Source: Moniliella sp. 'wahieum' (Eukaryota). From it: a DNA stretch of 64,000 bases. The first letter of the stretch is position 1. Each line of letters begins with the position of its first letter. Location of the stretch: assembly GCA_003971905.1 (NCBI GenBank), contig RSEE01000031.1:62001-126000 (forward strand), written 5' to 3'. Positions 6,418 to 59,065 of the stretch are shown in pieces. The notes under the pieces are model-generated. The model was not told the origin of the DNA and searched no databases. It saw only the letters and a program-made list of their open reading frames with translations. The position numbers and the translations under genes were made by a program.

Positions 6418-8080
6418 TAACCCCCGCAAGATGAACGGTTCGGTTTAGACGTAGCGTTCCCCCTGTCCCACAGTCTTAAGCTCTGTCAATGATATGGATT
6501 CAGAAGGGGAGATAAGGTTACAATATATAAGCGAAAAAACCCTAACATATCGGAGCACTTCAAACTTCAGCGCATGACATACAGAGAGTCCGAAGAGAGT
6601 CCGAGATGGACGACGACGGCGAGACGCTCTTCCGCCAGATGGATCAGGACATGCGCCGGCGTGAGGTCGCCCAAGACCACATGGACCTGGATTAGCTCTG
6701 AGAGCCCAACCCTTTAGCCCGTTACTATGAACATGCCTTCGACAATGAACCTACCTTCGAAAAACAGCCTGCCTTAGCTCCAAACCATTGCCACAGACAC
6801 ATAATCATGCACAACAAGTTCCAAACACAAAAGCGAACAGGACAGGCTGGGGCGAAGCCCCAGCCAACCGGGCCGTAGGCCCGGTGGTCCTCCTCGTATA
6901 TACAAAGCGCCGCGCCCCGATTAATAAGTCACAAAAATTCAACAAGGTAGCTGGTGCTATCGTGTGCTCTCACTCTAGAATATCCCCACACGACGGACAT
7001 GATGTAGTAGCTTTTCCCGCAATCCTATTAGTTCGAACGTCGGCAAACTTGGACGGTTCGTTGGTATGTTGATGAACTTGGTGGGCTTTGGACAGTACGT
7101 TTCTACAGTACCTGTTTATCCGGATCTGGCCGACGAGACCGATCGATGATCGGCAATGAGATCTGAGAGCTGAGAGGCGAAGGAGCAAATGCGTAGCACC
7201 AATTCAAAGGGTCTCCACGTGTAGCTCTTCATATATGTGCGCAAAAGTCAATACTCAGTACTCAGTACTCAATCCAGAAGCGTGTTTTGGTACCTGAGGC
7301 TTCCACTTCAAAGCGCACTTGTCCGTCCTTCCCATCCGCTTACAGCGACGGTGCGACGACAAATAAAGTAGTGCCAGCATCATGATGTGAACGTTGAATA
7401 ATACCTAATAGTATGTGCGAAGCTCTCAGTCAAAATGCGCTATGGGCTCTCAGATCTCACTAGTGGGCCTGTCAGCAGTAGACCTGGAGCCCTGATGATG
7501 ACGATCCTTAAGATGCTGATAGCAGCGGTAGTGGTAGGAGTAGCTTGTCCAACCAATGGAGCCTATGCTGAGACATCAAAACCTTATCTCCCGTGTAGCT
7601 CATGATGTGCATTATGATGTGGACTCACACTAAGAGAGGTCCGTCTGTTGAGTCACAGGGTAGCTCGTGCTTCCGACCAAAAGGTCCCTTCAGCCCCCCC
7701 TCAGGCCTAGGAGCTCCGATGTTAGTTCTCGCTTGTATATATTTGCCTTTTGCTCTCTCCGCAGCAACAGAGGCCCTCTGTTGCCAAAACTGGTTTGTGT
7801 GGGGACTGGATGATGCATGATGTCCTGGTTTGTGGGACCATGAACAAGATGGACATCACAGTGATTAATAACTAGGAGACCGCAGGGCCTATTACGGCCC
7901 GGTTTGGGTGCTGGACTACCGTCGCCACCTTTTTGGTCGCCGTTCCATCATCGCCACCGTAGCTACCGTTGCACCGTTCCATGTTGGCGAGATTTTATCG
8001 CCAATACGCTGGCCTGCGGCTGCACTGAAGGTGCGATGTGACAGGCTGATGTAAAAAGGAGGTCTTTTTCGGAAGAGAAC

Positions 8081-8388
8081 TGTCAATGATATGGTTACAG
8101 AATAGAGATGGATGTACATCATGGAAGTGCATCAGTGCATCAGTGCATCAGTGCATCAGTGCAGGATGATCCTGGTGACCCAAAGATGTCCCAAGTGCAG
8201 TTGTGCAGTGGTAGAGAGAAGACTGGAACTGGGTTGAACACAGATTGAGAATCAGAAGAAGGAGAAGAAGGAAGAGTGACTAGTGACACAAAAGGCCAGA
8301 GGATAGGGATTATTACTGAGGGGGGTGCCCGGATGAGTAAATGGTTAGGATGACCTGGGAGGTTGCTGGCCCATAACCCTGGTCAACA
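8081..8388. mobile_element. possible LTR of a second family (TGTCAA...TCAACA)
   Basis: TG...CA ends; its terminus tgtcaatgatatgg recurs at 6484; a GGTTATGGGCC (copia PBS-like) sequence lies on the minus strand at 8367-8377. No TSD seen. Confidence 0.3.
8126..8163. repeat. 8-bp tandem repeat (AGTGCATC)x~4.7
   Basis: agtgcatcagtgcatcagtgcatcagtgcatcagtgca read directly. Confidence 0.95.
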
Positions 8389-8519
8389 GTGCATCAGTGG
8401 CATGCATCATGTCGTCTAATTACACTAGAACCTCTGCCACACCCTCTTCATCGGCACACGTGCTGCTCCCGGAAAATCACTGCGGAGGGGAAACGGAGGT
8501 CCATGGTCCATCAATAATA

Positions 8520-10215
8520 TCTACCAACATTTCAACGTACGTCGAAAGAACACTCAACGTTCAACGGCCTCAACGGCTGGCCTTGAGCTGTTCAACGAGC
8601 ACGTTCTACGTTTGACGGTCGACGTTCGACGTTGAAGTTCAACGTCGAGAAGTGAGGTGAACGTGTCAACGTTCAACGAAGAACGACCATCGGTCACCCG
8701 TCAGCGCGTCAGCGCTGAACGTTGAACTTCAAACAACGTGGAGCTCAAAGTTCAAGCTGCCTCAGAAGCGCTGAGGCTACTTGGCGCGCAGCGAGCGCTC
8801 ACATCAAGCTTCAAGCGCAAAAAGCTGTCACATGTCACATATCAACGTTCAACGTCAAAAGCACCAAAAAAAGCTTCACAGCAGAGCTGTGGACGTGGAT
8901 GCCTGGGGCAAAACATTAGACGCACATGTGGGGTTCGTCGTTATAACGTGTCGATACAACACCCGTCCGGCGCATAACGCCCGCAGCGTTTCCGTACCAA
9001 CTTCTTAACGCCGTTACGCGTAACGCGTTATCAGCGATTATAGATCGACAATTAATTGCCACCACAGACGAACGCGGTCGAAATTATGTTTCGCGCGCAC
9101 GTTATTTTTTTCTATACAACCCCCACGGCCTCAGGCCTCACATGCCTGACCTCAGTAGGCCTCACATGCCTGACCTCAGGCCTCACATAGGCCACATCGA
9201 TTCGTTATTTGAACACCGAAAAACATGAGGCCCATGTGGGGGCACGGAAAACCCTTTGAGGAATGAAGGCTTGAAGCTTGAAGCCACAAGCGGCCGCTGA
9301 CAAATGACGAAGGGAAGACCGAGGAGGAGTCTTGGGCGATAAGACGAAACGGTAAAGGAAGAGATCAGGGCTAAAAATGTGAGCGTCCGTCCCGTATGTT
9401 GGGCAACCTTCTGTCCAGTCGCAAAACTCTACATAAGAGACAGCTCTAGAGCCATGGCACTAAGTCAGTTAGGAGGAACTTCTGCCCGACAGCAATTTTT
9501 ACAAGCGCTGAAGCCCTGCATGTGACATGTAAAGCCCTGAGATCCTGAGACTTGAGGTCCCTCAGCCTGAGGACTCCGACAGGCGCTCAGGCCTCCTCAA
9601 GCCTCAGGCTGAGGCCAGAGGCTCGTGCCAGTGAGACTCGGTTATTAAAACTTAACCCTATAGTAGCTTTGATCGTATGTAGCTCTCCACTCAAAGATAG
9701 TGTTGAAATTGGGGGGATGTGGTGGAGCGTCGGCAAAACGCGTTACTATTACTAGCGCTTGGCGCTTTTAGGGTTCAGTATGGAGTGCCTGAGGCCTGAG
9801 GCTCAGGCCTAAATACCTGAGTACCTGAGTACTCCGTGTACTGTGGAGTACTGAATTCCGGAACGCCACTTGCAGATGCCACTGTGTGAGCACAGTGAGA
9901 CTCTACCCACTAGGGACTAAGCTCTAAGGCGGGAGAGCGTAAGAAGAGCCTGAGAACTGAGATCCTGAGATGTCAAATCTGAGAGATCTGAGATCTGAGA
10001 GGCCTCAGGTTTCAGGGATGGTCAAAAGGCGATACGGGTAGTATATAGGGTGGCGTTTTGTCAGCAGCCTGTGGGGGTATGTTTCTTTGCGATTTGCATG
10101 ATCTGGGGGGGGGGGGTTGAACATACGTAATGCCGATAAACATTAAACGTTAAACGTTGGATGTATTACGTTGAGTACGTTGAACGTTAAATTGTGCACG
10201 TTAAAAAGTCGAAGC
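8520..10215. repeat. non-coding tract rich in short palindromic words
   Basis: Dense AACGTT, AAGCTT, AGGCCT, AGATCT, AGTACT and ACGCGT words with 7-bp periodicity; no credible ORF. Confidence 0.8.
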
Positions 10216-10297
10216 AGCTGAGCGCTGATGCATGATGGATGATGGATATTGGAGGACAGAGTCGGTAGATCCTGAACTGTCCTGTCAAACTCAGTAC

Positions 10298-11146
10298 TGT
10301 CACGGGCGGGCGCCGCCAGGGGCCCGCCCTGGGGTTTTTTGGGGTACAATCTCTTAGGCGACGGTAGGTCGACTCACGGTAGTTTCGGGATTAGGCTGGT
10401 TGGTGTGTCCGAGCGGAGCTAGGGACGAGGAGAGGCCTTTGGTGGGGCGGCTGCACGTGTGGCAAGGCTGCGTCTGCACCGGCTTGGGCCGTAGTAACGT
10501 GTCTGAAGCCTCCGGGACTTAGGGACGGGAGGAGGCAGAGGGGGACAAACACTGCCTCAACTGAGACTGGGAATCGCCTCGACCGAAGGAGGGCTCGCGC
10601 GATTGGACTGACGAAGGGCTGGAGGACGAGGTCGGAGGAGATGTCGGACGCTAACAAGAGGAGCTGCCTGTACTGGATCAATTGGCTGGAAAACGGGCAG
10701 GAGTCGGACAGGATAGGCGGGAAAGGGACGAAAGTGGAGACGAGAGGATGACGAGAATGGAAGGTGGGGGAAAAGATCCCCATCAACCAGGGGTACAGGC
10801 AGGATCAAAAGGGAAACGGATACAAGAGGGGTGTAGAAAGGAAGACATGTCAAAAGCGGGGTTGGTCGCCGCAGGCGCGACCGAGAAAGGAAAAGGAAAC
10901 GGGGACGGGGCGACAGTCGTCGCCACGGCACTGGAAGCTCGGTGGCCTTATTTAGGCCGGCCGACTTGGACTTGGGCGGGGGGCGACTATTGTCGCACGG
11001 AGCATGACCCTTCGGGCCACGGTACTTAATTTAGCCAACCGTCATCACACTTCGTTGGCCTGCGGTGCACGCTCTACTGGGCATGTGCGGAGCAGGCGGG
11101 CCTTAGCTTGGGTCGGACCATCTTGGGTCCGCCGCAGCCCGTGACA
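10298..11146 (+). mobile_element. solo LTR (849 bp) with 5-bp TSD AGTAC
   Basis: Ends TGTCACGGGC...GCCCGTGACA (10-bp terminal inverted repeat); AGTAC at 10293-10297 and 11147-11151. Confidence 0.93.
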
Positions 11147-11520: not shown

Positions 11521-12946
11521 ATGGATTCCCTAGGCCACTCTACCCCTTCAGCTCTTTCCATTGCCCTCCCCTCGACCAGCCTCGCCAGAACTGAGCTCTT
11601 TCCTGTCTCCGTCCCATCCTCTTCTGATGGACATGTGATGCCACCCTATGTTTTGCTTCCCTCGCAAGAAACTATGGTCGACCGTTACGCGTCAATGACC
11701 ACAATGGTACGTCAATCGATCTCTCCTTCATCCTTCGCTCAACTTACTGATCCGTTTTCTGCCGGTTGTGTCTATCACAGGAAAAGTTCATGGATCAGGG
11801 GGCATACACCGCGCAGGATGGCACACGTGTGGCTCCATCTTGGGCCAACGGACCAACCACCACATCCGCCCCAGCCATGGCTGTGTTGGAAGGTTCAGCA
11901 ACTTTCCTTCCAACCACTTCACTTCCTCCCATCTCCCCGCCCGGGAGCATAAACCACAATACGTTCCAGCCGCTTCAGCTCCGGTCACGCCCGTCCTATG
12001 CAGCGGACATGATCATTAGTAATGGCGACCAGCCTGCCTTTCCAAATGCACCGAGGGAAGTGATGTCTTCACCTCTAGGCGGATGGACCATACCATTTTC
12101 CCGCTCTTCCTCGGTACCGGATCTCGGCGTCAACGAGTCCGTATCCTGGGTGTCTACTCCATCGACCGAGCGTGGGACAACAGGATCCAAAAGCATTCCC
12201 ATCGCAGGAAGAAGAACCATTTTGTCGATCCGAACCGGGTAGAATGACGACCTTCGCCTCGTCCCCTGAGCAACCAGATTCATTATCCACTCACCTTTGC
12301 GCGGGGTGCGAAAGCGAAGCGAACGAGGCCGAGGACGAAACGCAAGTACAAGTACACGCGCAGTCGGACCGGGTGCTTGGTGTGCCGGAAACGGAAGGTT
12401 AAGTGCCCGCAAGATGGAAGCCCTTGCTCCCTGTGTTCGAGGGGGCCGGGCCTGTGTATATATGGGGGAACGTCACCCTCCTATGGCGATTCCGGCATGG
12501 CCTCGATCTCGTCCTGTTCTCTCCCCCTACCTGAGTCTGTGCCTCACTTGGGCCCCACGGCAACCGAATTCTCGACTGCAGGTTCGGTAAACGGCACTGT
12601 GCCGGACAGGTCGACAATGACGGTGGATTCGATGGCCATGAGTCATTCTCTATCCCCCGAAGGGGAATTGGGAGAGAAGGAATGGAGCACGTGGCCAACA
12701 CCGAATACCAATCTGGAGAGAACAGTGGGTGCATGGCCCACTGCTACCAATCGTGGGGCAGAGCAGGCATGTGCCTCGCTTTTAACGGATCCCTCCATCG
12801 ATCCACTAACGATTCCTGATTTGGGTGAGGTATGGGCGACTAAGAGTGCTGGCCGCTTTACTGCAGCGGAAAACTTCCGCTTATCGCGTGTACCCCCGAC
12901 CGAAATTTGGCTGTGGCAGGAAGCCGACAGCTCCTGTGGAAAGTGA
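11521..12946 (+). CDS. Zn(II)2Cys6 fungal transcription factor
   Basis: RTKRKYKYTRSRTGCLVCRKRKVKCPQDGSPCSLCSRGPGLCIY matches Cx2Cx6Cx6Cx2Cx6C (~12350-12465); ATG 11521; intron at about 11707-11779; frame disruptions near 12240-12295; end approximate. Confidence 0.85.
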
Positions 12947-14056: not shown

Positions 14057-14890
14057 TGTCACGGGCTGCGGCGGCCACGAGATGGTCCGACCCAAGCTAA
14101 GGCCCGCCTGCTCCGCACATGCCCAGTAGAGCGTGCTCCGCAGGCCAACCGAGTGTGATGATGGTTGGCTAAATTAAGTATCGTGGCCGAAGGGCCATGC
14201 TCCGTGCGACAATAGTCGCCTCCCGCCCAAGTCCAAGTCGGCTGACCTAAATAGGGCCGCCGAGCTTCCAGCGCCGTGTGTCGCCCCGTCCCCGTTTCCT
14301 TTTCCTTTCTCGGTCGTGCCTGGGGCGACCACCCCCGCTTTTGACTTGTCTTCCTTTCTACACCCCCTCTTGTATCCGTTTCCCTTTTGATTTGCCTGTA
14401 CCCCTGGTTGATGGGGATCTTTTCCACCACCTTCCATTCTCGTCATCTCGTCCTTTCCCGCCTATCCTGTCCGACTCCTGCCCGTTTTCCAGCCAATTGG
14501 TCCAGTACAGGCAGCTTCCTTGTTAGCGTCCGATTGCTCCTCCGACCTCGTCCTCCAGCAATTCGTCAGTCCAGTCGCGCGAGCCCTCCTTTGGTCGCGT
14601 CGATTTCCAGTATCCATCCAGTCTCAGTTGAGGCAGTGTTGACCGCCGCCGCCTCCTCCCGTCCCCAAGTCCCGGAGGCTTCAGACACGTTACTACGGCC
14701 CAAGCCGGTGCAGACGCAGCCTTGCCACACGAGCAGCCGCCCCACCAAAGGCCTCTCTTCGTCCGTAGCTCCGCTCGGATTTCCAACTAGCCCAAGCCCG
14801 AAACTACCGTAATGATTCGACCTACCGTCGCCTAAGGGATCGTACCCCAAAACCCCAGGGCGGGCCCCCTGACGGCGCCCGCCCGTGACA
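14057..14890 (-). mobile_element. solo LTR (834 bp), inverted relative to the 10298 copy, 5-bp TSD ATCAC
   Basis: Reverse complement aligns along its length to 10298-11146; TGTCACGGGC...GCCCGTGACA ends; ATCAC at 14052-14056 and 14891-14895. Confidence 0.93.
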
Positions 14891-16665
14891 ATCACCCTTC
14901 TTATCCGCCTGGACGCTCCCTCTACTTCCCAGGTACCCTCGCGGCTATATAAGGCCTCATCCTTCTCGTCGCCTCCTTTGCCTCTCCTCAGAACGACAGC
15001 CTTCATTCCCCCCCCCCCCTTTTCAGCGCACAAGTCCATAGTAGAGAGTCGAGATGTGTCGATGAGACTTGATTTTTTTGACAACAGTAAAGCTTTTGAA
15101 GCTATGGAAATGCTGAGTAAGGAAGACGAAGAGATAGTGAGATAGGATCTCGATGCATGTGGCGAGAGATATGCCAATGTGCCTCATTACTAGTTGGATA
15201 GGGTGTAATCGTATGTGAGTGTTTGGCCGAGATGAAGCGCTTGTCTAAATAGTCACAACGTTTGACGCTATGTTGAACAGCTTTTGGTGAGCGCTAACGT
15301 GTTCAACAATTGATTAGATTGGCTTGGAAGATTCGACAGGTGAAACGTCGTTTATCTTATCTCTGAACAAGCGATGCAAAATCCGGAGTGTATAGTGTCG
15401 GACGCGTGACGGAGACTCAGGACCGAACGTACTGGTTGATGAACGGACACAGCTGCTGTACCATGCTGTTGGTGTTGCTCATTCCCTCCATTCCAACACT
15501 TAAGCGCCTAGAGGGGGTAGGGGTGCAGAGGGGGGGGGGGGGGTGCGGGGTGGCAACGGAACGCTTTTGGCACTGTGAGAGAGGATCGATTATCGATTAT
15601 CGATTACTACCAAAAAGTCTGCCATCAGTGCATCAGTCATGCATGTCACTTGTCACCAACAGCACTCGTGACATCATTCATCATGTGCATCATGCATCAC
15701 TAGTCGCTAGCCACTACGCTTGCCACGAGCCCTGGAGTCCGGATATGGTCCTTGAGGATAATGCAATCGCATTGGTGGGTGGTGGTGGTGGTGGTGGTGG
15801 TAGTGGTCTGGGCCAACCAGCAACGCCTACAGAGGAACATCAAGCTTCAAGCTTCAAGCTTCAAGAGCTGGGCGTCCCCAGGGGCTAAAGCTGCGGAACA
15901 AAAAGGAAAACAGGAGAGAAAACAACGCAACTCCTAGGCTTGAGGAGGAACTGGAGGGTCGTTTAGCCCAAGCGCGAGTCCCGGTGACTCAACGCCCATC
16001 CCTCGGGAGAAGGCTGCCGTTTTGGGCCGGAGACCGCGCCGCCGGAGAAGAAAATAGAGGACACCGCAGCCCCCTGCGAGCAAGTTCACTTGGCTCGCCC
16101 AGCTCATGCGTCCTGCTTCCAGATGCAGTGGGGCGGGGCGGGGCAGCGCAGTCCTAGTCAGCGCGGGGCTTTGGACCAGCCGAATACAGACGCACGGGGG
16201 CAGCCTTGTCTCGCCTGCCCGTGTGCCACCGCAGCACAGGCGGGGCGGAGGCAGCGAGGCGCTGTGTGGGTCCAGCGCTTTCACGTGTGACCGACGTGAT
16301 GTGCACCCTTGTACTCCCCCCCTGCCTGCGACTGCGCGGCAGGGGAAGGATGCGGAAATGAAATTAGCCTACGAGTCCTGAGATCCTGAGACCCCAGGCA
16401 GCCAGGAACAGGCGCACAGGGCACCCCGCCCCACGGGGCCAGTGTCATCCATTCATTCGTTGCACGCCACCGACGGCACCAGACTGCACCCAGCCCTCTC
16501 TTGGCTTGCCCCCCCACCTTGGTGCGACGCTCGGCTGGCTTGGTGTGCCGCGCCAGCGCCAACTGCCCCCCCCCCCCCCCCCCCCTGGGCCTCCTCCCAT
16601 CCGCCTGTCGCGCCCCCTCTGCCCACCCCACCACCACCTCTTTGCGTTTCGCCCGTTCTTTCGCC

Positions 16666-35020: not shown

Positions 35021-35209
35021 AAGAAATTACCGCAGCAGAATGAAGTTAGTGTGGCCGGTTGCCGGCCCGATCACCCATTCCGCCCATCCAGCACAAGGGC
35101 AGTCCGCCATCCTTCCCGGCCGCTCGCCCGTCCGGCCCCGGCGAATCTGCCCCCGTCAAAGCCAACACCCAAGTGCGCTGGTTTCATCCACCACAGCAAG
35201 TCAATCCCC

Positions 35210-37179: not shown

Positions 37180-39130
37180 GATGAGATCGATGATCGAGTA
37201 TCGATGATCACGATCATGGGCTTGAAGCTATTATGCTGGCTATGTCTCGGCCCTTGTCAGGGCCTATCGGAACCTGTCGGAGCCTGTCGGAGTCTGTCGG
37301 AGCCAAGGAAAAAATGCATGCTGCCTTGAATTTCGACGGCGGAAACCTACATCGGCGTTAGGAGGATCCCTCATCGATGAGGGGTACCAGGAGACACCAG
37401 GGGACACCAGAGGTTCGGTAACCCTAGGACGCCACACCCAATCGACGGCAGAAACCATATAATCGCCGTTCCTTTTCTTTTCTTCTTTTTCTTAGGGATG
37501 GCGACTCAGCCAACGCTCAGTTTCCGTCGTTAGTGCTTAGTACTTAGTGCAGACCTGTGGGTCCCTTAAGCCTTCCTCACCTGAGGGCCTGAGTATGAGT
37601 ACGAATACCGAGTACTCTACATTGAGTGTACTGAGTACCGAGTCTCAATACTGTGAGAGGTACTGAACGTACTCTGGGATCTGAGTATCGATCATCTCAC
37701 GCGTTTAGCGGTCACCAGGTCACGCGCGCTACGCCAAGTGTGGCGTCTGCTGTAAGTTGCTAGTTACTAGTCACTAGCACTTCGTTGTACCGAATTCTGG
37801 CTGGGAGTTTCGCGTTTTTTTCTTCAAAAAAATCATAATGCATGTGCCAGGCTCGTCAAAAGAATCCTTCAAGCTTACTCAGGTACTCAGGGCCTCAGGC
37901 CTCAGGGCTTGAGCCTCAGGGGCTTGAAGCTTGAGGGCTCAGTGACGGGTTCCATGGTTACACGGTTACGCCGGTTACGCCTGTGGCTACCCCCTCTGTT
38001 ACGCGCCCCACGCCCCGTTAAACGTTAAACTTAAACCCTCGGGGCCTCCGGGCCTCAGAGACCTTAAACCCGTGGCGTGTGAGTACTGACTGAGTGGGGA
38101 AGCGGGGAGGTATGATGGATGATGCATGTCAAGCCTATCGATGATGAGACCACTTTGCCTCGAGTGGTCTGCGCGCGGAGAGTTGGGAAGCTTGTATTGC
38201 AAGTAGAAGCTAGAAGGCAGACCGATTATTGATTGAGTACTTGTTCTATAGTTAAGCTAGTTACCGAGCATCAAAAACGCTTGGTGTGTGTGCTGTGGGA
38301 GTTGCCAAAGCGGGATACGGATACAGGCCCAAGCTCCAAGATCCAAGCTCCAAGCTCTAAGTCCAATCCAATCCCTCAAGCGACATGGTAACTCCTCTGA
38401 TCTGATCGATCTGATCCCCAAAACAAGATGCGCCCCCAAGTCGTAGATAGCGCCGATGTCTGCGATCTGCCACACTCGGGTCACTAGGATCACACATGTC
38501 ACCTGTCGCATGCCACATGTCACATGTCACACGGCTGAGAGGTCCTAGCTAGCTTCAAGTTTCAAGCTCTTCAATCTTCACCGGTCACCGGTTCACCCTT
38601 CCAGCTTCGAGCTTAGTCACGTGTCACGCGTCACGTGCACCCCTTTTCGCGGTCATCACAGTTACTAGTTACAGGCCGTCATGGTCTTATTGGCGCCAAC
38701 GCAATTCGCCCGACGGAAGGATGGAGGGCGAGGCGGGTCGGTTGGTCGATGGATGCTGCAACGAATGATCTGACTATACGCAGGTGAGTACTGAGTCGAT
38801 GATCGATGATCTCGATGATCGATCAAACGTGAAACGTCCGGCTGTATATGGTGCATGGGCGTGAACGTTAAGTACGTTAAAAGCGGGAGACGGATGGACA
38901 TGCTGAAGCTTGAAGCTTGAAGCTTGATTAATGATTCCTCGGTGAAGCGCATGGACACCCGGGACTTCACACGGGACTAGCAACCGAGGCAGGCAGCCTT
39001 GGGCTGGTCAGCAAGTTGCCAGCGCGGCTGACACACTGACGGGTGGGTGGCAGGAGCGCGCAGAACTGAGATACTGGGAACTGAGCGAGGCCTCCTCTGG
39101 CCTGCATGGCTTGAAGCTTGAAGCTTGAGA
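37180..39130. repeat. second non-coding tract rich in palindromic 7-mer words
   Basis: Tandem atcgatg, agtactc, aggcctc, acatgtc, accggtc and aagcttg units. Confidence 0.8.
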
Positions 39131-43649: not shown

Positions 43650-43922
43650 GGTCGCTTGCAATGGCGCCGAGCGGGACAAGATGGGCGAGCGGTGGATCGA
43701 TCCGGCGCTGGCTGTAGCAGCAGCACTTGAAGCTTCACTTGAAGCTTGCAGCTTGACGGCTAAGCCAGGACGCACGACACGACTTGGCGGAAAGCTTCGA
43801 ACACTCTGCGTTAGGTTGGTGCGTGATCTTCACGGGCCAACCAAGGAAATAGCCCCAATTCCGAGCCACTATTCCGCCGTTCGGCTGAGTGTGACCACAA
43901 CTTGGCCCAACCTCTCACGAAA

Positions 43923-43994
43923 GCCTCTTTGGCTCAATGGTAAGGCGTCGCACTCGTAATGCGAAGATTAGTCGTTCGATTCGGCTAGGAGGCA
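43923..43994 (+). tRNA. tRNA-Thr(CGT), intronless
   Basis: Acceptor stem GCCTCTT/AGGAGGC plus discriminator A; D arm TGGCTCAATGGTAAGGC; anticodon arm TCGCA-CTCGTAA-TGCGA; T loop GTTCGATTC; downstream T6 Pol III terminator. Confidence 0.96.
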
Positions 43995-44388
43995 TAATTT
44001 TTTGTACCCCTCTCCTTTCGCTTGCTTTGGCAGGACATGAAACGGTACCGCGGTGTGGTTCGCCGCGGGGGAGCCTACTGATACAGATGATGTTGATAAG
44101 TACCTATGTACCTGCGTCTGCAGTCCGCACAACCAACATCGCACACATCGCACAATCAAACAAACGATAGATCAACTGCAGAACGCAGATAGATCCGGCT
44201 CCTCGGTATGCTAAGCATGTCGCTTACCCACCCACCCGGCCCAGGCTGAGCGCTCAGCCTGAGCGATCAGAGACTCAGCGCTCAGGCTCAGGGCGCTCAG
44301 GGCAGGCTCAGGACAAGCTCAGAGCAACAACTGCCCCCCCCCCCCCAGCAGGGCAAAGGGCTTGGGGCCCGGGTTAGGGCTCACATTT

Positions 44389-46142: not shown

Positions 46143-47467
46143 GCTGCGTAGCCAGATGGCGGGGTGGAAGGGCTGGGCGGTGGCGGTGGCGGTGGCAGCG
46201 GCGGGAGAGAGGAGGGCAGAGGCGTAGCGGAGCACGCGTTGGCTGCGGCTGCGATCATTCCGATGGGCCAGCGAGTAAACGTGGCTGATTTGTTTATTCT
46301 TTTCTTTTTCAATTTCTTTCTTGCGCCAGGTGTCATGCATCATGCATGACATGCCACCGGCACCGCCTTTCGCAATGTGGATTGTTGTAGCATGGCCACC
46401 ACCAGCTGCTGCTGCAGCATCCCCACCACCCCCTCGCCCCTCTCCACCCCACGTGCATCCCCACCGCCATCCTGTCTACCCTGCCCGCGTTCCATCCGCA
46501 CAGACAAAGTCCTGTGCCCCCGGTAAAGCCCAGCAGCTGGGCCGACAAAGACAAACACCAACTGGGGCGCCACACCCGCCTACTCCTTGTCCGTATCCGT
46601 CGTAGAACCCCCCCCCCCACCACCGCCATGACCACGCTGCCTTGGCCGGGAATAAGGCCGAGATAAGGAAAGAAAGTGTACGCTGCTCCTTTCTCTCTGC
46701 GCTTGCTAAATAACCATTTCCATGCGTCTCCACCAAACCAGCACCAGTGAATATTGACCCGGCAGCAGTTTCCTTGCCACAGTAGTATAGGGCTCGTAGT
46801 ACCTCATAGGACTTAGAAGCGCTCTGAATGGTGATGATGACCGGTCATGGGTGGTAGTGATTCAAGCGGGCCCCCGTATCTGCCCAAGCACCGTCCATAC
46901 AGGGCTTTAGGGATACGGCTTGCTGCCCCTGCCCCCTCCACCTCTCCAAAGGCTCGCGTCGCCGCTGGGTACTTTCCTTGGACGATCGATGAGACCTGCA
47001 GTCCGCAAGGTGCTGGAGCGAGACGCAATGGAAATGACATTCCACTAATGGGGGTGGTTTTGGTCTAAGATCTAACGTCTATACGCCAACTAACATCCTC
47101 CCCAAAGGCCCTGTAAGATAGGATGCATTATGGGCTGCTGTAGCTACCCCCTAAGGCCTAACTTGTCTAGCTAGCGTCACGCATCACGTGAGCATCACCC
47201 TTCAACTTTCAATATCAACCCTTGCCTGACGCTTACCTACCTCATCCTCTGGCCTGCCTGCCCTTTGAAATTTGTCATTTGAAGTTTCACGTCAAGCTCT
47301 CAGATCTCAAGCTTGAAGGCGATCAGCGGCTGGCGCGGTCCCAGACTTGGGCGTAGGCGTAGGCTGAGGGAGGGACAGCGCAAGGCTAGCTCTGGTCCAC
47401 CATCTGCCATCCGGCCTGATCCGGTCCCATCTGATCTGCCTCTACCTTTGACCAGACACCCAGTCCC

Positions 47468-48371: not shown

Positions 48372-49829
48372 CCAATGCGCCGGCTGCTGGCTGCCGGCTG
48401 GCAGGCCGACAGAATGCAACGCGAAGAGATGCTATGGAACGGAGCCCATTGGGCTTAGCGGAGTGGGCACCTGGTTTGAAGGAGGACTGTGGGGGGGGGG
48501 GGTCTACGTAGAGCGCGGAGGAGGTGGGGCCTGAGGGCTTATGCATCATGGGAGCAGGTATGAGGCATGAGATCTGAGAGCATTCCAGGTGAGCGCAAGG
48601 GGGGCTAACCTGGAAGAGGAAGGGCAATGGTAACAGCAGTGAAGCTAGTGACTAGTGACTAGGGGGTGTGCCGACCGACACGCAAGAGCGAGTGGGTGCT
48701 GAGCTGAGGCTGAGCTGAGGCTTGGCGGGGCATGGCATACTGAGGATGGCCGACTGCGACTGGCTAGTGAGGATCGAACGCAAGCGCGACTCGTACTGAC
48801 GCGTATCCTGACGGGTTGGAATGTGCTGGGTGAGGCTGACTGGGACGGTGGGTGAGTAGGGTGCTGGCTGCTGGGCATGCTGGGCGGCGGGGGGGCTGTG
48901 TGGGCTGGGGTTGGCCGTTGGCTCAGCATCTGCGGTTCACGTGCTGGTTGAAATTGCATGTTCAGGGGGCAGTCATGGGAGGGGGATGACGTGCATGACG
49001 CGGGACGCTGGCCAGCCAACGTCCAACCGAGCCCAGAGGGCCAGCCACCCTTCCGCTTCCGGCTGGAGCAGCGCCCGCTCCAGCGCTCCAGGCACCCGTC
49101 AGGAAGGGCGTGCTGCCCAGCCGAAGGGCGGCGCAGCGGCAGTGTGTGCCCCGCCGCCCGCACACGGGCACTGGGCGAGGGCGGGACGCACGTGCCAGTG
49201 CTCGCCCTGCCCGCTGCTGGGCGGCTGGACGGCGGCGTGCGCACGCGACCAGCGCCCCCGTGCGGCGCGGCGCCTGGGACGCTGCGACGCCGATCGACGA
49301 TCGCCCCCCGCACGCCCGCACACGCCAGCACCCAGCGCTGCTCTTGCCGATCCTGGCTGCTGGGCGGGCGGGCAGTGTGTGATGGGCGGGGGGCTGGCGC
49401 CGTGGCGCGTGCTGCGTGGGCACGGCGCCCGTGTCTGCCGCACCCGACACACGCCGCTGCAGGCAGACCTCCGGATGCACGCTGCGCTGAGCCAGGCCAG
49501 TGCCTAGTCACACTAGTCACGCGGCCCGCGTCCCGCCGCAGCTGCGCTGTCCTGCCCAACACGGCAGCTGCCCAGTGCCTGTCGCAGCACTCGGCGCGTT
49601 GGGCGTGTCGGTCGCCTGCTTATAATCCTCCCCGCCGCCTGTCTCTTCTGCACTCCACCGCCCACTCCTTCCGTTCCCTCCCTCCATCTTCCTCCTCCTC
49701 CTCCTCCTCCTCCTCCTCCTCCTCCCTCCTCCTCCTCCCCCCCACCCCCACGTTCTTTATCCTCCACCACACTCTTTGTCTCCCCACCACACTCTTGCCT
49801 CCCCCCCAACCACATTCTTTTTCTCCGCC

Positions 49830-52440
49830 ATGTCCTCCCCCTCCCGCCACCCATCCGCCTCCCCTCCTCCGCCTCCGCCCCTGCCCCGCCCTCAGCCACA
49901 CCCCGCGCCGCCCCACCGCGCCCTCGGCGCGAACCGCCGTCTGTCCCCCAACACCTCCCTTGCCTCCCTGGCCAGTGTCACCAGCGCCTCCCACCTGCCT
50001 CCTCTGGCTGGCATTGGCCTCACCCCATGGGCGCGCCGGTCCGATTCCAGTCGTGTGCTCAGCACGCCGGGCATCATGACCATGGGCGGCCTCATCCCCT
50101 CCCCTTCCTTTACGCCCGACATGCAAATTTCCGCCTCGGCACCCACCATGGCCTTTGGGCCGTCGCCGCTACGTTCGCCCAGTGTGCGTGCGCACTCGCG
50201 TGGCCCGCACTCGTCTCCTACTTCCTCCACCCTCCTCTCCACCCTCATCCTGACACCGAGCACTCTTCGCACTCGGCTTCGCAGTCCCACTCGCACTCAC
50301 AGTCGCAGTCGGCTTCGCAGTCGCACCCGCGTGCCCCACCCTCGCGCTCCTCGTGCTCGTCGCGCTCGTCGCAGGGCGCCACGGGGGCGCTTCCTTCGCC
50401 GCGCGAGATGGCGAGCAAGATGCCCGACTCTCCGCGTGCGGACCACCAGCGCCTACCTGGGCTCGGACAACTACTGCACTGCACCCGCACCCGAGCACAC
50501 GGTCGTACCCTACCCTATCGCCGTACGCGCCGCGCGCGCCGCTCACGTTCCCCCTCCGACGCAAGAGTAATCCCGACGACAGCGTGGGTACCGATGCCGA
50601 CGCTGACGCCGATGGTGATCCCGATGCTGATGCTGATGCGGAAGGCGAGATGGACACTTCGGTGAGCCAAGAGCGGGTGTCCAAGCGCGTGCACGCCCAC
50701 GCCCCCGTTCACGAGAATGGGACCGGGACCGAGAATGGGACCGGACCGAGAATGGGACCGAGACCGAGAATGGGACTGAGAATGGGTGGAAGGGAGTGAT
50801 CGGTCGACGGATACGCAGATGGAAGCTGATGCCGACCTGGTCGGGCTGGGGGTGGTACTGGATGCGCATGAAAAGCGCACTTTGGCTTGGCACGTGGGGT
50901 ACCGCGCGCCTCGTCGCCGTTACGTGCGCGACGGACGTTACCCTCGGCGCCTAAGCTGGGCAGCTCGGACCAAGGCCGGTTCGCTAACGTCCTCGATCTC
51001 TACCCGGACGAGGAACGCATGTTCCCGCCGGCGCGTACGCTCAGCTGCACAGCCCAAGCCCAAGCCCAAACCCAAACTCAAGCTCAAACTCAAGCCGCAA
51101 CAGCGGCCCCGACACCAACGCCCACAGCCACACCTGCTGCGGCAGGGGTACCTACCGCGCTTCCTGCACCTTGCTACCCCAGCAACTTGTGGCCCGCTCC
51201 GTCGCCAAGCGCGGGAGTGAGAGCACGAGCACGAGCACGGGGGGGTACCCGCGTATGGCCGGCCTGTCAGGGCTAGGTCTGACATTTGACGACGCGCCCG
51301 ACCTGACGGGGTACGCGTGGCGCGGCGAGGGGGGCAACGGTACTGAGTGGGCCCGCTCCTGGCCCGCTGCACACGACTTGCCCTCGCACTTGTTCCCGTC
51401 GGACGTGGTGGGTAGCGAGGGTGGTGCTGGGTCTGGATCTGGACCTGGGCCTGGGTCTGGGTCTGGGTCTGGGTCTGGGCCTGGCTCGGCATCGGCGTCG
51501 GGTGGTATGGCCACGATGCACCTGATGGACCGGATGCACCTCCATCCGTCGCCCATGACAATGGGCACGTTACCGCTTCCGTCTCCTTCGACGACGATGG
51601 TGGTGATCGACTCGCCGGCTGTGGGATGGTCGTCGCTTCCGGACCCCAGTGGTGGCCCGACACAAGCACAGGCACAGGTATGGGCATGGGGCCAGGCGCG
51701 GCTGGGTCGCTGGTGGGCAGCCCGGCTCGATCGGTGCAGCGTTGGCAGCTGTCAAGCATATGGTGCTTACGCCTACGCCTACTTCGAGCCTGGTACCTCT
51801 ACCTAGTCCGAACCTACCTCTACCCCCACCGGGACCGACGAGCATGAGCATGAACTCGAGCACGAGTCCGCTCACGTCCAAGCCGACGGGATCTTTACGT
51901 GCGCAGTGCCAAGCGCGTTCAGCCGCGTTGGTACGTAGTACGGCGTGTGCGTTCGAAGCGCACGCGCTGGCTGTGCGGACCAACCGTGCAGGTGCAAGTG
52001 CGGGGGGAAACACGGTGCCAAGTCGACGTCCAATCCCGCCACTACGACGGAAAACGGCGCGTTTCGTCCCACTCAACTTCGTTCGAGGGCGGCAGCACGG
52101 ACGAAGTCCAGTCCCCCTGGGGCGTGTTTAACCTCAACCCGAAAAAGCCGGGTGGAAACCCCTTTTCCCACCAGGCATTCGGCCTCCGACGTTGGCTATG
52201 TGCCTGGTTTGGTGGATACCGATGCCGCGGGCGCGAGGGCTAGTTCGTTCACTCACTCCTGCTCCTGCTCCCGATTCGGCGCTACCTTCTGCTTCGCCTG
52301 CCAACGTATCCGTCTCGACCGCCCGAAAAAGACAAAGAAGGTCGTTTCGAGTACTAAGTCCCAGGCCAAACCTACCTTGTCCCTCAAGCCGACGAATCGG
52401 GTGTGACATGTGCCAGGTCCATGGCAAGAAAGTCAACTGA
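49830..52440 (+). CDS. long low-complexity S/P/H-rich hypothetical protein
   Basis: ATG in ccgccATG context after a TATAAT and a (CCT)n leader; overlapping frameshifted ORFs with SHSQ, DA, ENGT, QA/QT and GS repeats; no domain recognised; end uncertain. Confidence 0.45.
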
Positions 52441-52738
52441 AGCTTGAAGCTTGAAGCTTGAAGCTTGAAGCTTGAAGCTTGAAGGCAGGTTGAACAACGT
52501 TGGATGTTGGACGTTGGACGTTGGACGTTGGACGTTGGACGTTGGACGTTGGACGTTGGACGTTGGACGTTGGACGTTGGACGTTGGACGTTGGACGTTG
52601 GACGTTGGACGTTGGACGTTGGACGTTGGACGTTGGACGTTGGACGTTGGACGTTGGACGTTGGACGTTGGACGTTGGACGTTGGACGTTGACGTTGGAC
52701 GTTGGACGTTGGACGTTGGACGTTGGACGTTGGACGTT
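52438..52738. repeat. compound 7-bp minisatellite: (TGAAGCT)x6 then (TTGGACG)x~33
   Basis: Read directly; one 6-nt unit near 52689. Confidence 0.98.
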
Positions 52739-55627
52739 GCGTTGAGGATGTTAGGTTCTGGTATGGTGAGGCCTCGGCCTGAGGAGGGCTGTTGAGTTGA
52801 ACGTTGACGCGGTTGACGTCAACCGTGTCACGGTCACCCTTTGTGCAGTGCCTGTTGTTGTGTGTCGTTTGTCGTTCGTTTCCGGGCTGGGTCTGAAGTC
52901 TCCAGTCCTGGCATTGGCATGGTTGTCGTCGGGTAGGATCCAAGTATATACGTTGTGGGGTTGTGGCGTTCTAGCGTTCTAGCGTTATGAGGTTCGGGGG
53001 TTCTGACCCCTGTGGCCGTTGTAGGAGACGGGCGCAGCCGACCAACCACAACCAACCAAACAGACAGACAGACAACCAAATAAGGATCCACATGCGTCGT
53101 TCTGAGATCTGGTCGGAGCAGGAAGGGGGAGGGACGGAGGGGGGTATAGTTTTACTATTCCCGTATTGAGGCGTAGATGCTGCGTAAGGAAAAAGCATAG
53201 CTGCGTAGATGCGCAGATGCAGATCGAGGTGCCACGGTAGAGTGGTAGAGTAGAGTGTGAATATTGGATCGACCATCGGGCCCAAGCGGAGATGGTACAC
53301 GTTGAAGGATAGCGTGTATGGATGAGATGAGATGGAATGGGATGAGGGGGTCTGGAGCAACAACTTGAAGGCATGATGCTTGCCTAGTGACTGGATCGTG
53401 TCTGGCAGAGAGACTGTACCTGCATGGGCACCGCTGCGGTCGTCAGTCAAGGAGGGGAATGGTTAACGAGGAGGGAGGGGTATAGCAGCGAATTCCAAGC
53501 GGTTTTGTGTTGGTGCACGTTACATTTGGTCTCATGATCGACTCATCGTGCTCATCCTCATCCTCGTTCCCGTTCTCGTGGCTCAGCGCTCATCCTCGTT
53601 CCGTTCCCGCGCCCGTCCCGTTTTCCCCCGCTCCCATTCTCATATCCCACCGGCCACGGGGCAAGGCAAAGGATGACGTATACCGCCAAGCCGCAGGGAG
53701 GGCGTGGGGGGCCTGTACGGGCTATATGGCAAGTCACTCGCAGTGAGTTTTCGCTGTGGTCACTTGGGCTGGAAGTCCTACTCAGTAGTCATGTTAGGTC
53801 GTCGCGATGAGCCTCACCCGCACGCTCAACACATGCCACACCTCATCATCTGATAGACCTCAGCCTCATCGATCATCAGATGAGGTTCATCCGCGCGACA
53901 GACACGAACTACTGTGAACATGGGAGGCCCGGGGGGAGCGGTGGTAGATCGGTTGTGGGGCCATGCCGAGTAGCGGATTCGGTTACACGGGGTACATATG
54001 TGCACCCTCTAGCTGCGTGCGGAAGCGGGGACCGATCATCGATCATCGATCATCGAGTATACCAACTCGATAAGATCTGGATAATTCGCTACTTATCATG
54101 CCAGATGCTTGGCACTCCCGCCCAGGCGGGCGGGGGCGGGGTTTGATCTGGTTTTCAATTGGTGGAGCGAACCGAGGATGGGGGTCGGGGCCCCGACGAA
54201 GACGCGGCCCGCTGTAGCAGTCGGATAAATGTATGGGTACGTGAAGTGGGGAGCGAGGAGCGAGGAGCGCAGTGGAGGGGGGTTCCAGAGAAGTATCTGC
54301 CCATCGTTGTGCCCGTTCGGAGTATGCCGGTGGGGAGACGGGCGGGATGGAGAAGGGAGATGGGAGCGGGGGCTGCGGAAAAAGTGGGTGCGAGTCAAGT
54401 ACGTACTGTTGGGTATTACTGAGTATAGAGAACTTGCCGAGGGAGAGCGACGCCAATGATCGAGATGATCGATGAGGCCGATGAGGACGAGGCCGATCGA
54501 TAAGGCCTATGGCCTTATTAACACCCTACTCCTAGGCCATCACACAGGTCACATGTCATCATCCATCGCGCTGGTACCATATATCTTGGCATGGCGTGGC
54601 GTAACGCGTAACGCCACGGCCTGTCAATGTCACAGGCGAGCCCCTTCTAAATCAACCGCCAGTAGCCGCCCAAGGAGTCATAGTCAAGCGGGTTCTAGGT
54701 ACCATGGGGGTGACCGGTGGCCGTTACCGGTTACCGTTGCCGTTGCTGTTGCCGTTGCCGTTGCCGGGGACGCGGGGACCGGATGGAAAACTCGAGAGGG
54801 GAGTATTGAGTGGTGCGAACGTCGAACATTGAATTGGGGGCCAATTACCTACCGTTACACGATACCTATCAACCACTGGGGCGCGATGGGGCGCGACGGG
54901 GCACGACGGGGCACGACGCAGAGTGACGTCAGTGGCGTCGCGCTTGCGTTGGCCGGATGGACGTTGGGCATAAGGGGTCGGGAGGGGCCGGGGAGACCCG
55001 GAGGCGGCGCGGCGCGGCGATAGAGACGGCGACCGAGACGGAGACGGAGACGTGCTGCGTAGTGCTGCGTAGTGGGTGCGCTGGGCCGCGCCAGGGCAAG
55101 GGCGGCCGAGTGCGAGCAGCTGCGGAGCGGTAGGCGACAGGGGCCAGGTGCACCCACGCCGCAGGCGTCACGCGTCAGGGTGCCTGCCAAGTTGGGTCTC
55201 CGCAGGCCCTGTGCCTGGCAGCCTCAGGCGGCACGCCAGGGCAGGCAGGTGGCCGAGGCGCCGCGGGCACGTGTGCTGTGTGGACGCGTCGCAGTGGGCC
55301 CAGATGCGGAGAAGCGCCCTGGAGCGGGGGGGGAGAGGAGGCTATTCGGCCTTAGGCCTTAGGCCTTGGGCCTTTGGCTGGGCCAGGCCATACGCTGGTC
55401 CACTGCCTGGCACACCTCCGACGCCCTCCGACGCCCTCCCCCCCCCCAACGCCCCTCTGCCCCCCCCTCGGCACGGCGTTTGGGTGCCCGGCAACAACAT
55501 ATAAGACGTCCCCTGGCGTGCACAGACCACACCCAAGTCCTCCCTCTCCCACATCCCTCGTGCGCGCCATTTCCACTTTCCCCATTCCCCTTCCACCCAC
55601 CACCCCCACCCAACCACCCATCCGAAC

Positions 55628-57303: not shown

Positions 57304-57744
57304 TTACATCTTGCCGCGCATCGCAACGTAAAAGATCTTGGCTTCATCGGGCGAGTTGAACCAGAGTGGTGCCCCATTCTCAATCACCAGCACGTCACCT
57401 GGCTTGGCGGTAAACTCTTCTCCCGTCTCGAGGTTCTTCACCTCCAGCGTGCCCGACAGAACAATCTCTGCACGACCACAACACGAGAGGAACGAGGTGG
57501 TTAGTACCCGCTTCTTCGCATATGAGGTTGAAGAGAGGAGAGGAGAGGAGAGGACTAGGGAAGGGGACGCACTCTGTTCCTTGTAGGTATAGGTATAGGT
57601 CAGCCCTTTAGGGTCTTTCTTCTGGATGTAAAACCCCGAGGTCAAGTCGTTAAGGTTGGACGAGGCAATGTCGCCCAGAAAGGCGCCGGTGCCAAAGTCG
57701 CCGTACTTGGGCTCGGGTTGCGGGTTGACCTTGAGGAGAGACAT
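57304..57744 (-). CDS. EutQ-like cupin protein, one intron
   Basis: AFLGDIASS...LTSGFY...LTYTYTYKEQ, intron 57468-57572, KIVLSGTLEV...FTAKPGDVLVIENGAPLWF. Confidence 0.85.
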   Translation of the reverse strand: MSLLKVNPQPEPKYGDFGTGAFLGDIASSNLNDLTSGFYIQKKDPKGLTYTYTYKEQSASPSLVLSSPLLSSTSYAKKRVLTTSFLSCCGRAEIVLSGTLEVKNLETGEEFTAKPGDVLVIENGAPLWFNSPDEAKIFYVAMRGKM

Positions 57745-57855
57745 AACGAAAAGGGGACAGGAAAACGGGAAAATAAAAGGAAGCTTGAAACCTGTGGTGG
57801 TAGGTGGTGGGTGGGATGAGGAGACCAAAAAGGTGCTGCCGGTTCGGAGGTGGGG

Positions 57856-57863
57856 TATTTATA
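57856..57863 (-). promoter_or_regulatory. TATA box upstream of the cupin gene
   Basis: TATAAATA on the minus strand about 110 nt upstream of the ATG. Confidence 0.55.
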
Positions 57864-59065
57864 CGCATGCGCTCTGCTACCGAGACGATTGAAGCTTGAA
57901 GCTTCAATGTCGTGCCCAATCTCTATCTTCGATGGCTATAGGTGCAATCGGTACGCATGGCGGCCATGTGGGCGTTAGAGCGGGTGTGCGTAGGCGGAGA
58001 GCTCGGGCTGAGCAACGCCACAATAGCTCTAGAGCCAACAGTGGGTCTCTCTGTCCCCGAGTGAGCTCTGCCTCGGGCTGACTGGGGTGGGACGGACACG
58101 GATCCGTTGCGCTCGCCGCCTCGAGACTAAGCGAGCTCGGCATAGATGATCGATGTAATGAGATCAATGGGATTACGAGACGTTGGATGGGAGCGATTGG
58201 ATGGAGATGGATGGGATGGCTCAGCACAGAGGAGATAGCGGCGGAGGAGACTGGTCGCAGGAGTTAGAAACCAACGGCTACCCCTCCTGCAATGATTGAA
58301 GTTGCCCCTTGCCTTTCTGTGCCTGTGGCCCCGCTACTATGCAGTCCCTTCCACCACATCTAAAGATCTAATCTCTCTCCCATGAAAATCGCAGAGCAAT
58401 TAAGCGCGCATACACTGGCGCTGTGCTTCAGGCCAGGTGACGCGGACCGCTGGTCATCCGTCACCCGTCAAGCTTTAAGCTCCAAGCTTTAAACGTAAAC
58501 AAGTACAGGGTGCACTTGGAGGCATACCGCGCGCTTAAGCCGCAGCAACCATTAATTTTAATCAACGTCCAACATCAACAAACGGATGGATGAGAGATTC
58601 GACTAGGATTACCGATTTCTGATTAGATTCGTATTGCAAACAATCATTAATCATGATTGAAGGCAGAGCGTCGTGTTTTTCCTGATGCTGTTGCTCTTTT
58701 GCGTCGCAAGTATGCACAAGTGTACACCCGACAGCAGGGTGGAAATGGCCCTAACGTGATGCGTAATCGACGTAATCCGTGCTCTGAAATCCCTTGTTTG
58801 TACCCGCTGGGCCAGCCGCGCATACTATCTGCAGGTGGTCCGCAGCGCAGGGCAAAGAAAAAGAAGAACTCAAAGAGAAACGAGCAGTCGGAGTCTGCAC
58901 ACCATCATCAGTGATACTTAGCCGTTTGACAAGTCTCGGTGTCATGTACTGTTGTACGTCCATCAACCACGGTGTGAATCCTCTGCACCCACCTCCCAGC
59001 CCAACCCAACACAAACACATACAGCTTACATCTATCGATCCCAACGACCTCCGTGCTGTGCAGTA

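Follow-up and report, generated by a model that had tools for sequence, protein, structure and literature searches.

The hAT and Transib transposons, RAG1 and a Mutator-like element (MULE) form hairpins on the flanking DNA, which are opened by host enzymes and sealed by end joining with a footprint, according to PMC5499845. PIF/Harbinger elements generate a 3-bp target duplication (PMC2213677), and excision of mariner-type elements leaves a small duplication and a few bases (PMC4561436). An abundant intergenic 7-nt direct repeat, TAACTGA, with stop triplets inside it, is known from the Beggiatoaceae (PMC4679880). As far as the relevant parts of the two sources go, the (A)n-(T)n palindromes of Fusarium mitochondria (PMC7218506) and the material of PMC3152781 are unrelated to the pattern described below. 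Here we describe intergenic repeats in a 64,000-nucleotide stretch of DNA from Moniliella sp. 'wahieum' (contig RSEE01000031.1, positions 62,001 to 126,000; the whole stretch is hereafter the window), in which palindromic 4-bp cores of many different sequences alternate, at a period of 7 bp, with a three-base linker T-N-A, N being any base. The statistics all refer to this one 64-kb window, and loci, rather than positions, were the counting unit. Full-text literature searches found no published description of a rule that joins TNA to a palindrome.

Period-7 repeats with palindromic cores and T-N-A linkers

Tandem Repeats Finder and lists of exact runs showed 52 loci in the window with an exact tandem duplication of period 7 and a length of 14 nt or more, in 2 to 35 copies each. 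Since a very short unit is repeated head to tail in them, these loci are microsatellites. The unit consisted of a 6-bp palindrome plus one nucleotide in 27 of the 52 loci, as compared with 5.5 expected from the window's own 7-mers and 9.2 expected when units were permuted (maximum 17 over 300 permutations). The same test showed no enrichment at period 5 (30/104, with 26.5 expected), period 6 (0/105), period 8 (0/10) or period 9 (1/9). We found that the palindrome was of the form A-N4-T in 26 of the 27 palindromic units, among which 11 distinct cores occurred. The spacer base was C in 11, G in 9, T in 4 and A in 3 of them, so that it was G or C in 20/27, a share not clearly beyond base composition. 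Since an A-N4-T palindrome followed by any spacer base reads as a linker T-N-A, the linker is broader than TGA/TCA; these two were the most frequent, and TAA and TTA were present too. The triplet is always a TGA or TAA stop on one or the other strand. A period-8 variant, in which the linker CTGA/TCAG carries one extra base, made up 5 of the 10 period-8 loci and had 4 different cores. The preliminary description of this DNA had put forward a period of 7 made of a palindromic 4-mer and a 3-nt linker, and this was borne out, more strongly than it had been put, except that the linker is not confined to TGA/TCA but takes any N and has the CTGA variant. The repeats that it cited as examples were all present, at or no more than 2 bases from the places reported.

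The rule was also seen in short matches. The window contains 224 10-mers of the form TNA-N4-TNA, and N4 was palindromic in 99 of them (44%), against a background of 6.1% for all 4-mers; the three remaining symmetric linker families (ANT 14/146, CNG 17/349, GNC 18/445) showed no enrichment. The 99 matches are grouped in 77 clusters, and 14 of the 16 possible cores are represented among them. When 100 block-wise dinucleotide shuffles of the window were taken as the background, palindromic cores with the same N on both sides were found 75 times versus 2.4 expected (shuffle maximum 8), a 31-fold excess, which substantiates the enrichment of palindromic cores anticipated earlier. The remaining classes were palindromic cores with different N (24 versus 5.5 expected), non-palindromic cores with the same N (57 versus 34.1) and non-palindromic cores with different N (68 versus 86.4). 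These counts indicate that nearly all of the T-N-A excess at spacing 7 is tied to a palindromic core. The length of the core is equally restricted, as cores of 2 nt (29/111 palindromic, 26 expected), 6 nt (0/149) and 8 nt (1/88) between TNA linkers were not enriched. With repeated copies masked, 6-bp palindromes with A..T as the outer pair were still enriched (240 versus 158-168 expected), as were TNA-centred 7-bp odd palindromes (217 versus 149-170 expected), and the remaining outer pairs were not.

The linkers flanking the 99 palindromic cores had the same N in 75 cases, complementary bases at N in 12 and some other combination in the remaining 12. The earlier impression that units often flip is therefore not upheld, since flipped units account for 12/99 matches and 10-bp palindromes as a class are not enriched in the window (74 versus 66.5 expected).

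The spacing of TGA/TCA pairs showed a single peak at 7 (101 versus 21 expected, with 57 left once exact arrays were masked), a count that is among the analyses using a hand-drawn 'intergenic-like' set, chosen partly by eye from the signal map. Location statistics for that set are circular, and DNA free of open reading frames (ORFs) provides the independent measure. Defined as DNA outside any stop-free frame of at least 110 codons, ORF-free DNA makes up 22% of the window and carries 48/77 clusters; at a threshold of 150 codons, 34% of the window carries 58/77. The restriction to non-coding DNA is understated by these figures, because high G+C gives many spurious frames.

As control DNA we used metagenome contigs found by a scan for three copies of TGAAGCT, the most common unit, which gave at least 121 stretches. 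With the duplicate L048 and all AAGCTT-unit arrays dropped, 120 control loci (718,640 bases) were compared. More than 121 metagenome contigs, whose G+C ranges from 0.30 to 0.67, contain TGAAGCT in three or more copies; this array is widespread in nature, and the general rule is not. Among the other period-7 loci of the control contigs, the unit was a palindrome plus one nucleotide in 13/177 (7.3%), with outer pairs A..T in 4, C..G in 4, G..C in 3 and T..A in 2. When AGCT cores were dropped, N4 was palindromic in 132/2029 (6.5%) of the control TNA-N4-TNA 10-mers, without enrichment, as compared with 77/202 in the window treated likewise. The rule is therefore not a general property of heptamer repeats. 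All four A..T control cases came from three contigs, L062, L034 and L100, in which the rule is weakly present. The 9 longest frames of L062 had no Pfam match, and the metagenome loci did not resemble the window except for a weak protein-level match in L009. A 14-mer, TGAGATCTGAGAGC, occurs at four window sites with unrelated flanks (7157; 7446, minus strand; 47296, minus strand; 48568) and also once in L062 (4863), which is otherwise unrelated to the window.

The smallest forms and the ends of runs

The smallest forms of the pattern were direct repeats of TNAnn parted by two bases. Counting both strands, we found 120 TNAnn direct repeats with a 2-nt spacer, and in 92 of them the spacer was the reverse complement of the last 2 nt of the repeat, for which chance would be 1 in 16. 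Inverted spacers at other spacer lengths were found in 10/21 (1 nt), 2/33 (3 nt) and 1/46 (4 nt) cases, and an inverted 2-nt spacer was not enriched in control repeats of the forms ANTnn (0/33), CNGnn (2/29) and GNCnn (2/116). Two marks of a transposon footprint are thus present, namely a direct duplication flanking the scar (the 120 TNAnn repeats; 75 versus 2.4 in the same-N class above) and intervening bases that repeat the neighbouring flank as its inverted complement, in the manner of P nucleotides (92/120). A survey free of the rule, covering all 119 exact period-7 runs of length 12, showed a 2-nt middle that inverts the adjacent repeat end in 35 runs, as compared with about 15 expected. 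TNA stood at the far repeat end in 18 of these 35, that is, in nearly the entire excess.

The form TNAnn-n'n'-TNAnn, in which n'n' is the reverse complement of nn, yields by itself the 7-bp period (5+2), an arbitrary palindromic 4-bp core, the A...T 6-bp palindrome and the same N in adjacent linkers. The ends of the runs were examined in all 115 maximal exact runs of period 7 that reach at least 10 nt and have a unit in keeping with the rule. By unit position (T, N, A and the core bases c1 to c4), the starts numbered 22, 10, 15, 15, 10, 31 and 12, and the ends 19, 12, 23, 9, 30, 14 and 8. Starts are concentrated at T and at c3, the beginning of the second core half, and ends at c2, the close of the first core half, and at the A of TNA. 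Simulated arrays with random phase and random mutations gave near-flat end distributions, save for one bump from mutations in N; against a flat distribution, chi-square tests of the observed runs gave p = 0.0016 for starts and p = 0.0007 for ends. Of the length-12 runs that fit the rule, 18/26 were TNAnn-n'n'-TNAnn or its mirror image, and those of length 13 were mostly the same forms plus one chance base. The register expected from the duplication of a pre-existing 7-bp palindrome occurred in none of the length-14 runs. The 27 longer loci, judged by eye, had no clear register (start at T in 6/27, end at A in 6/27).

Neighbouring arrays have the five bases around the linker in common, the differences lying in the two central bases, which fits local re-seeding; their linkers are also on the same strand. 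Taken together, the argument that one geometry with many cores implies a generating process, rather than one satellite family, holds, as the preliminary description had concluded: 14/16 cores are in use, no dispersed family carries the arrays, control DNA lacks the rule and the smallest forms look like discrete events.

Possible origins of the repeats

We prefer the hypothesis that this intergenic DNA is written by a lineage-specific break-and-repair event that adds 7 bp per step and propagates itself, a reading that we consider plausible while stopping short of calling it probable. The event would act at a T-N-A-n-n site and convert TNAnn to TNAnn + n'n' + TNAnn, its product being a 5-nt direct duplication whose copies are parted by the reverse complement of the final two bases. 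No prior palindrome would be needed, since a core of any sequence would automatically become palindromic. Each product would hold two new TNAnn sites, so that the event would double its own target, and repeated events, with or without ordinary replication slippage, would lead to homogeneous arrays. The simplest chemistry to infer would be a staggered break with a 5-nt offset, one end of which would go through an intermediate, a hairpin or a turn-around, and gain two P-type nucleotides before being rejoined. Because a direct duplication together with inverted flank bases marks breaks that pass through a hairpin, TNAnn-n'n'-TNAnn may be read as such a mark, and the occurrence of 14 different cores suggests that the palindromic bases are taken from the local flank rather than from the ends of an element. 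Core usage also agrees with such an event, as it follows the abundance of unmodified TNA+nn sites (Spearman 0.83). As agents one may consider a transposase that makes 5-bp target duplications, some other site-specific nuclease or template switching by a polymerase. The hairpin-opening and cut-and-repair candidates of the preliminary description fit better than the dimeric binder that it offered as the alternative (same base 75, complementary 12), and the mechanism itself is something that we infer.

Several observations weigh against a discrete event of this kind. The inverted bases always come from the nn side, an asymmetry that would be unusual for a symmetric transposase and is not predicted by it. 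Many arrays are 15, 16 or 18 nt long, lengths other than 5+7k, and slippage or later decay must therefore act too. The share of palindromic units climbs with copy number, from 9/28 among loci of 14-15 nt to 18/24 among those of at least 16 nt, and pure slippage predicts an equal climb. No transposase domain was detected in the 251 open frames of at least 110 codons in the window, and no terminal-inverted-repeat element with matching TNA or 4-bp duplications was found there. The only transposon-like copies in the window, those of a family resembling long terminal repeats (LTRs), have 5-bp duplications, AGTAC and ATCAC, that do not fit TNAnn. The cores AATT and TATA are absent, where about 4.7 and 3.2 clusters, respectively, would be expected, and the count of unmodified sites behind the correlation with core usage may contain decayed earlier products.

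One alternative is that the arrays are structure-driven microsatellites. Slipped strands of units made of a 6-bp palindrome plus one base would fold into a 5-bp stem with a T-N-A triloop, escape loop repair and expand by slippage, and mutated cores would expand again. In yeast, heteroduplex loops that are palindromic are repaired poorly. We regard this explanation as possible, although rather unlikely. Hairpins are predicted for every observed unit, each array is internally homogeneous, the common linker 5-mer and linker strand of adjacent arrays would be expected under local descent, and both the climb of the palindromic share with copy number and the lack of a fixed register at the ends of the longer arrays agree with slippage. 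However, predicted folds of three units, calculated with DNA parameters, had mean energies of -2.76 kcal/mol for A..T as the outer pair, -2.95 for T..A, -4.9 for C..G and -4.6 for G..C, so that fold stability leaves the A..T pair in 26/27 units unexplained. In hairpin-driven repeats the most stable folds should occur, and here palindromic 6-bp cores between TNA linkers, which would fold better, number 0/149; periods 5 and 9 likewise lack enrichment. Slippage also does not account for the lack of enrichment in 718,640 bases of control DNA, for the small excess of non-palindromic intermediates (57 versus 34) or for the modular ends of short runs, and expansion alone cannot give 77 clusters with 14 cores where chance would supply about 8 matches. 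Hairpin stability as the cause of the A..T rule was rejected, as T..A units are equally stable and units with G/C outer pairs are stabler.

A second alternative, which we consider improbable, is that the arrays are binding sites kept by selection in promoters or elsewhere in intergenic DNA, either for a lineage-specific protein that reads T-N-A triplets 7 bp apart or for a dimer on TGA-N4-TCA. The sequence-specific linker beside a free core, the second specific linker CTGA with 4 different cores, the recurrence of TGAGATCTGAGAGC four times in the window and once in L062, and the 48/77 clusters in the ORF-free 22% of the window would all suit this view. An uncontacted spacer need not be palindromic, yet 44% of the cores are, and N in the linker can be any base. 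For a dimer, complementary linkers would be expected, whereas the linkers lie in the same orientation in 75 cases and are inverted in 12, and 10-bp palindromes are not enriched overall; the arrays are thus unlike dimeric transcription-factor sites, and the dimeric TGA-N4-TCA binder of the preliminary description is unlikely on the same counts. That the arrays are subterminal or internal repeats within one or a few families of transposons or of MITEs (miniature transposable elements with inverted repeats), or an artefact of assembly or sequencing, is very improbable, since, although some transposons have short subterminal repeats (such as the 12-bp repeats mentioned for Muta1 in PMC5499845) and LTR-like elements exist in the window, the LTR-like family is the sole dispersed repeat besides the arrays, low-complexity sequence and short weak matches and contains no arrays, the array flanks are unrelated, and more than 70 loci with 14 cores between ordinary genes are unlike an artefact. 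The T-N-A requirement is explained by none of the models. The remaining probability is reserved for an explanation beyond these four.

Returning to the break-and-repair event, it is possible, if doubtful, that a hitherto undescribed, lineage-specific enzyme activity recognising T-N-A, for instance that of a nuclease, of a transposase (either domesticated or active) or of a repair polymerase that switches templates, writes increments of 7 bp (a 5-bp direct and a 2-bp inverted copy) that recreate its target. A large share of the intergenic DNA would then arise de novo through this self-propagating process, rather than through drift, the insertion of transposons or ordinary slippage. Should the rule reflect a discrete event, it would provide a readable mutational signature and a way of generating non-coding DNA from a 5-base seed alone. 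The responsible enzyme could then be traced by comparing genomes with and without the signature, which would also account for the richness of the intergenic DNA in restriction-site-like palindromes and stop triplets and would bear on the annotation of repeats, the design of markers and the analysis of promoters in these fungi. Even with slippage as the engine, repeat instability would depend on sequence, through the strict combination of T-N-A and 4 bp, in a way not foreseen by current hairpin models.

Other features of the window and comparison with known systems

The window is fungal nuclear DNA with a G+C content of 51-69%. Its open frames match the families of the ribosomal proteins S6e, S13 and L36e, the TFIID subunit TAF12, an OPT transporter, an AMP-binding enzyme, dephospho-CoA kinase, a Band-7 protein and the fungal protein EOS1. 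The top named relatives of the TAF12 frame are in Tilletiaria, Malassezia and Tilletia, with 68-78% identity over the histone-fold part only, about 20% of the query. The fungus thus probably belongs to the Ustilaginomycotina, and it has no close relative in the protein collection that was searched. The arrays and related features are listed in Table 1.

Table 1. Repeat arrays and related features of the window (positions are those of the window)
Feature	Positions	Remarks
(TCA-GTAC) x2.9	7252..7271	unit AGTACT+C
(TGCA-TCAG) x4.8	8126..8163	period-8 variant
Degenerate field, ACGT/AGCT cores	8530..8860	TTSAA theme; exact runs 8826-8840 (ACATGT+C) and 8842-8855 (AACGTT+C)
GGCC-TCA units	9127..9188	within a 24-nt higher-order repeat
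(AGCT-TGA) x2.3	9269..9284	
(GGCC-TGA) x2.3 into (GTAC-CTGA) x2.4	9787..9832	second part period-8; CCTGAG common to both
CTGAG-themed field	9945..10001	(GATC-TGA) x2.6 at end
(ACGT-TAA) x2.3	10143..10158	T-W-A linker
(TCGA-TTA) x3.1	15585..15606	
(TGCA-TCA) x2	15686..15699	
(TCA-AGCT) x3.7	15840..15865	length 26 = 5+21; starts at T, ends at core centre
(GTAC-TCAG) array, then (GGCC-TCA) x2.3, then AGCT units	37876..37939	first part period-8
(ACGT-TAA) x2.1	38016..38030	
(AGCT-CCA) x5.6	38329..38366	linker variant TGG/CCA
GTCAC-themed field	38493..38640	cores CATG, CCGG, ACGT and CGCG inside 150 bp
TGA-GTAC-TGA, then (TCGA-TGA) x3.7	38785..38825	
(TGA-AGCT) x3.4	38904..38927	
(AGCT-TGA) x2.9	39109..39128	
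Period-12 CACTTGAAGCTT x2	43724..43760	contains flipped 10-mer TGAAGCTTCA
CTSAG field, GCGC cores	44238..44326	flipped 10-mer TGAGCGCTCA at 44247
TCA-TGCA-TCA-TGCA-TGA	46333..46350	final linker flipped
Flipped 10-mer TGACCGGTCA	46838..46847	isolated
(CTAG-TGA) x2.6	48645..48662	
(TGA-AGCT) x6.7	52438..52484	100% matches; length 47 = 5+42
(ACGT-TGG) x34.9	52497..52739	largest array; linker variant TGG
(TCGA-TCA) x3.4	54033..54056	
(CGCG-TAA) x2.3	54599..54614	
(CCGG-TTA) x2	54723..54736	
(GGCC-TTA) x2.9	55348..55367	
TGA-AGCT-TGA-AGCT-TCA	57889..57907	final linker flipped

The 243-bp (ACGTTGG) x35 array is stop-free on the minus strand, where it opens a 278-codon frame (52137-52970). The translation of this frame is repetitive and has a spurious Pfam match to PF20678, a herpesvirus glycoprotein family, so that automatic annotation could call a gene here. 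A tRNA-Thr gene (anticodon CGT) lies at 43923-43994 on the plus strand, in the short intergenic region downstream of TAF12 and about 170 bp from the array at 43724-43747. Nine homopolymer tracts of G or C, 10-20 nt long, were found at 10105-10116, 15008-15019, 15530-15543, 16566-16585, 44334-44346, 46608-46618, 47527-47537, 48491-48502 and 55438-55447. Two of the tract regions, 46601-46620 and 48489-48508, form a 20-nt inverted repeat that is 95% complementary and lies around the dephospho-CoA kinase gene region.

The LTR-like family, which carries no arrays of the rule, is the only dispersed repeat of the window once the arrays themselves, matches of low complexity and 24-40-nt stretches at 71-81% identity are set aside. 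Two copies of about 850 bp (10298-11146 and 14057-14890) are mutually inverted and 93% identical, with the termini TGTCACGGGC...GCCCGTGACA and each with its own 5-bp target duplication (AGTAC and ATCAC), and they look like solo LTRs; a partial third copy extends from 6141 to about 6329. The pair brackets a frame (12248-12943) with a fungal Zn(2)-Cys(6) domain, and copy 1 lies within a TCA-GTAC-TC element of the 7-bp pattern. When the two copies were aligned, their indels were 1-16 nt long and none corresponded to a 7-bp unit. A motif, GATGATGCATG / ATGATGGATG, recurs in different intergenic regions at 7807-7840, 10221-10247, 38101-38127 and 39259-39292, with 71-81% identity over 27-34 nt. Array flanks were unrelated to one another and had no consensus beyond the short unit, unlike those of a dispersed family such as a MITE, a repetitive extragenic palindrome (REP)-like element or a satellite. 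As the arrays lie in no dispersed family of the window, the confinement to one or two transposon families that would have spoken against the earlier proposal was not observed.

Among known systems, the footprints of hairpin-type excision and the P nucleotides of V(D)J joining are like the present pattern in that a short direct duplication encloses bases that are the inverted complement of the flank, arbitrary in sequence yet palindromic. The target duplication of Transib is 5 bp, and the usual offset of hairpin opening is 2 nt. In contrast to such footprints, the duplication here always begins with T-N-A, the inverted bases come from one side only and always number exactly 2 nt, the products are repeated in arrays, the longest with 35 units, and the window contains no such element or transposase. 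Heptanucleotide microsatellites and the hairpin-forming CTG/CAG repeats likewise consist of short head-to-tail units that are homogeneous, non-coding and predicted to form intrastrand hairpins. The repeats described here differ from them in that at least 14 cores follow a single rule, with A..T as the fixed outer pair and T-N-A as the fixed linker, fold stability does not predict the units, and heptamer-rich control DNA lacks the rule.

In PIF elements, TTA/TAA is duplicated within a palindromic target of 9 bp. Mariner elements leave a footprint in the form of a 7-bp odd palindrome whose centre is ambiguous. The present pattern differs from those of PIF/Harbinger and Tc1/mariner-Stowaway elements, as N is G or C in 20/27 arrays and the duplicated stretch behaves as 5 nt, not 3; no such element, and no TNA-flanked element with the 3-bp TWA duplication of PIF/Harbinger, was found in the window. 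Palindromic sites of the form TGA..TCA are bound by dimeric factors of the bZIP type, and these sites resemble the arrays in their half-site-like TGA/TCA triplets and in the occasional perfect TGA-N4-TCA palindrome, whereas in the arrays the direct orientation prevails (75 versus 12) and the 4-nt spacer is palindromic and free in sequence. The TAACTGA repeats of the Beggiatoaceae are a single fixed unit in bacteria, for which PMC4679880 proposes a regulatory role, as compared with variable palindromic cores in a fungal nucleus here. We file the repeats with the known kinds, as structured microsatellites and footprint-like scars, with a real chance that they represent a new mutational process.

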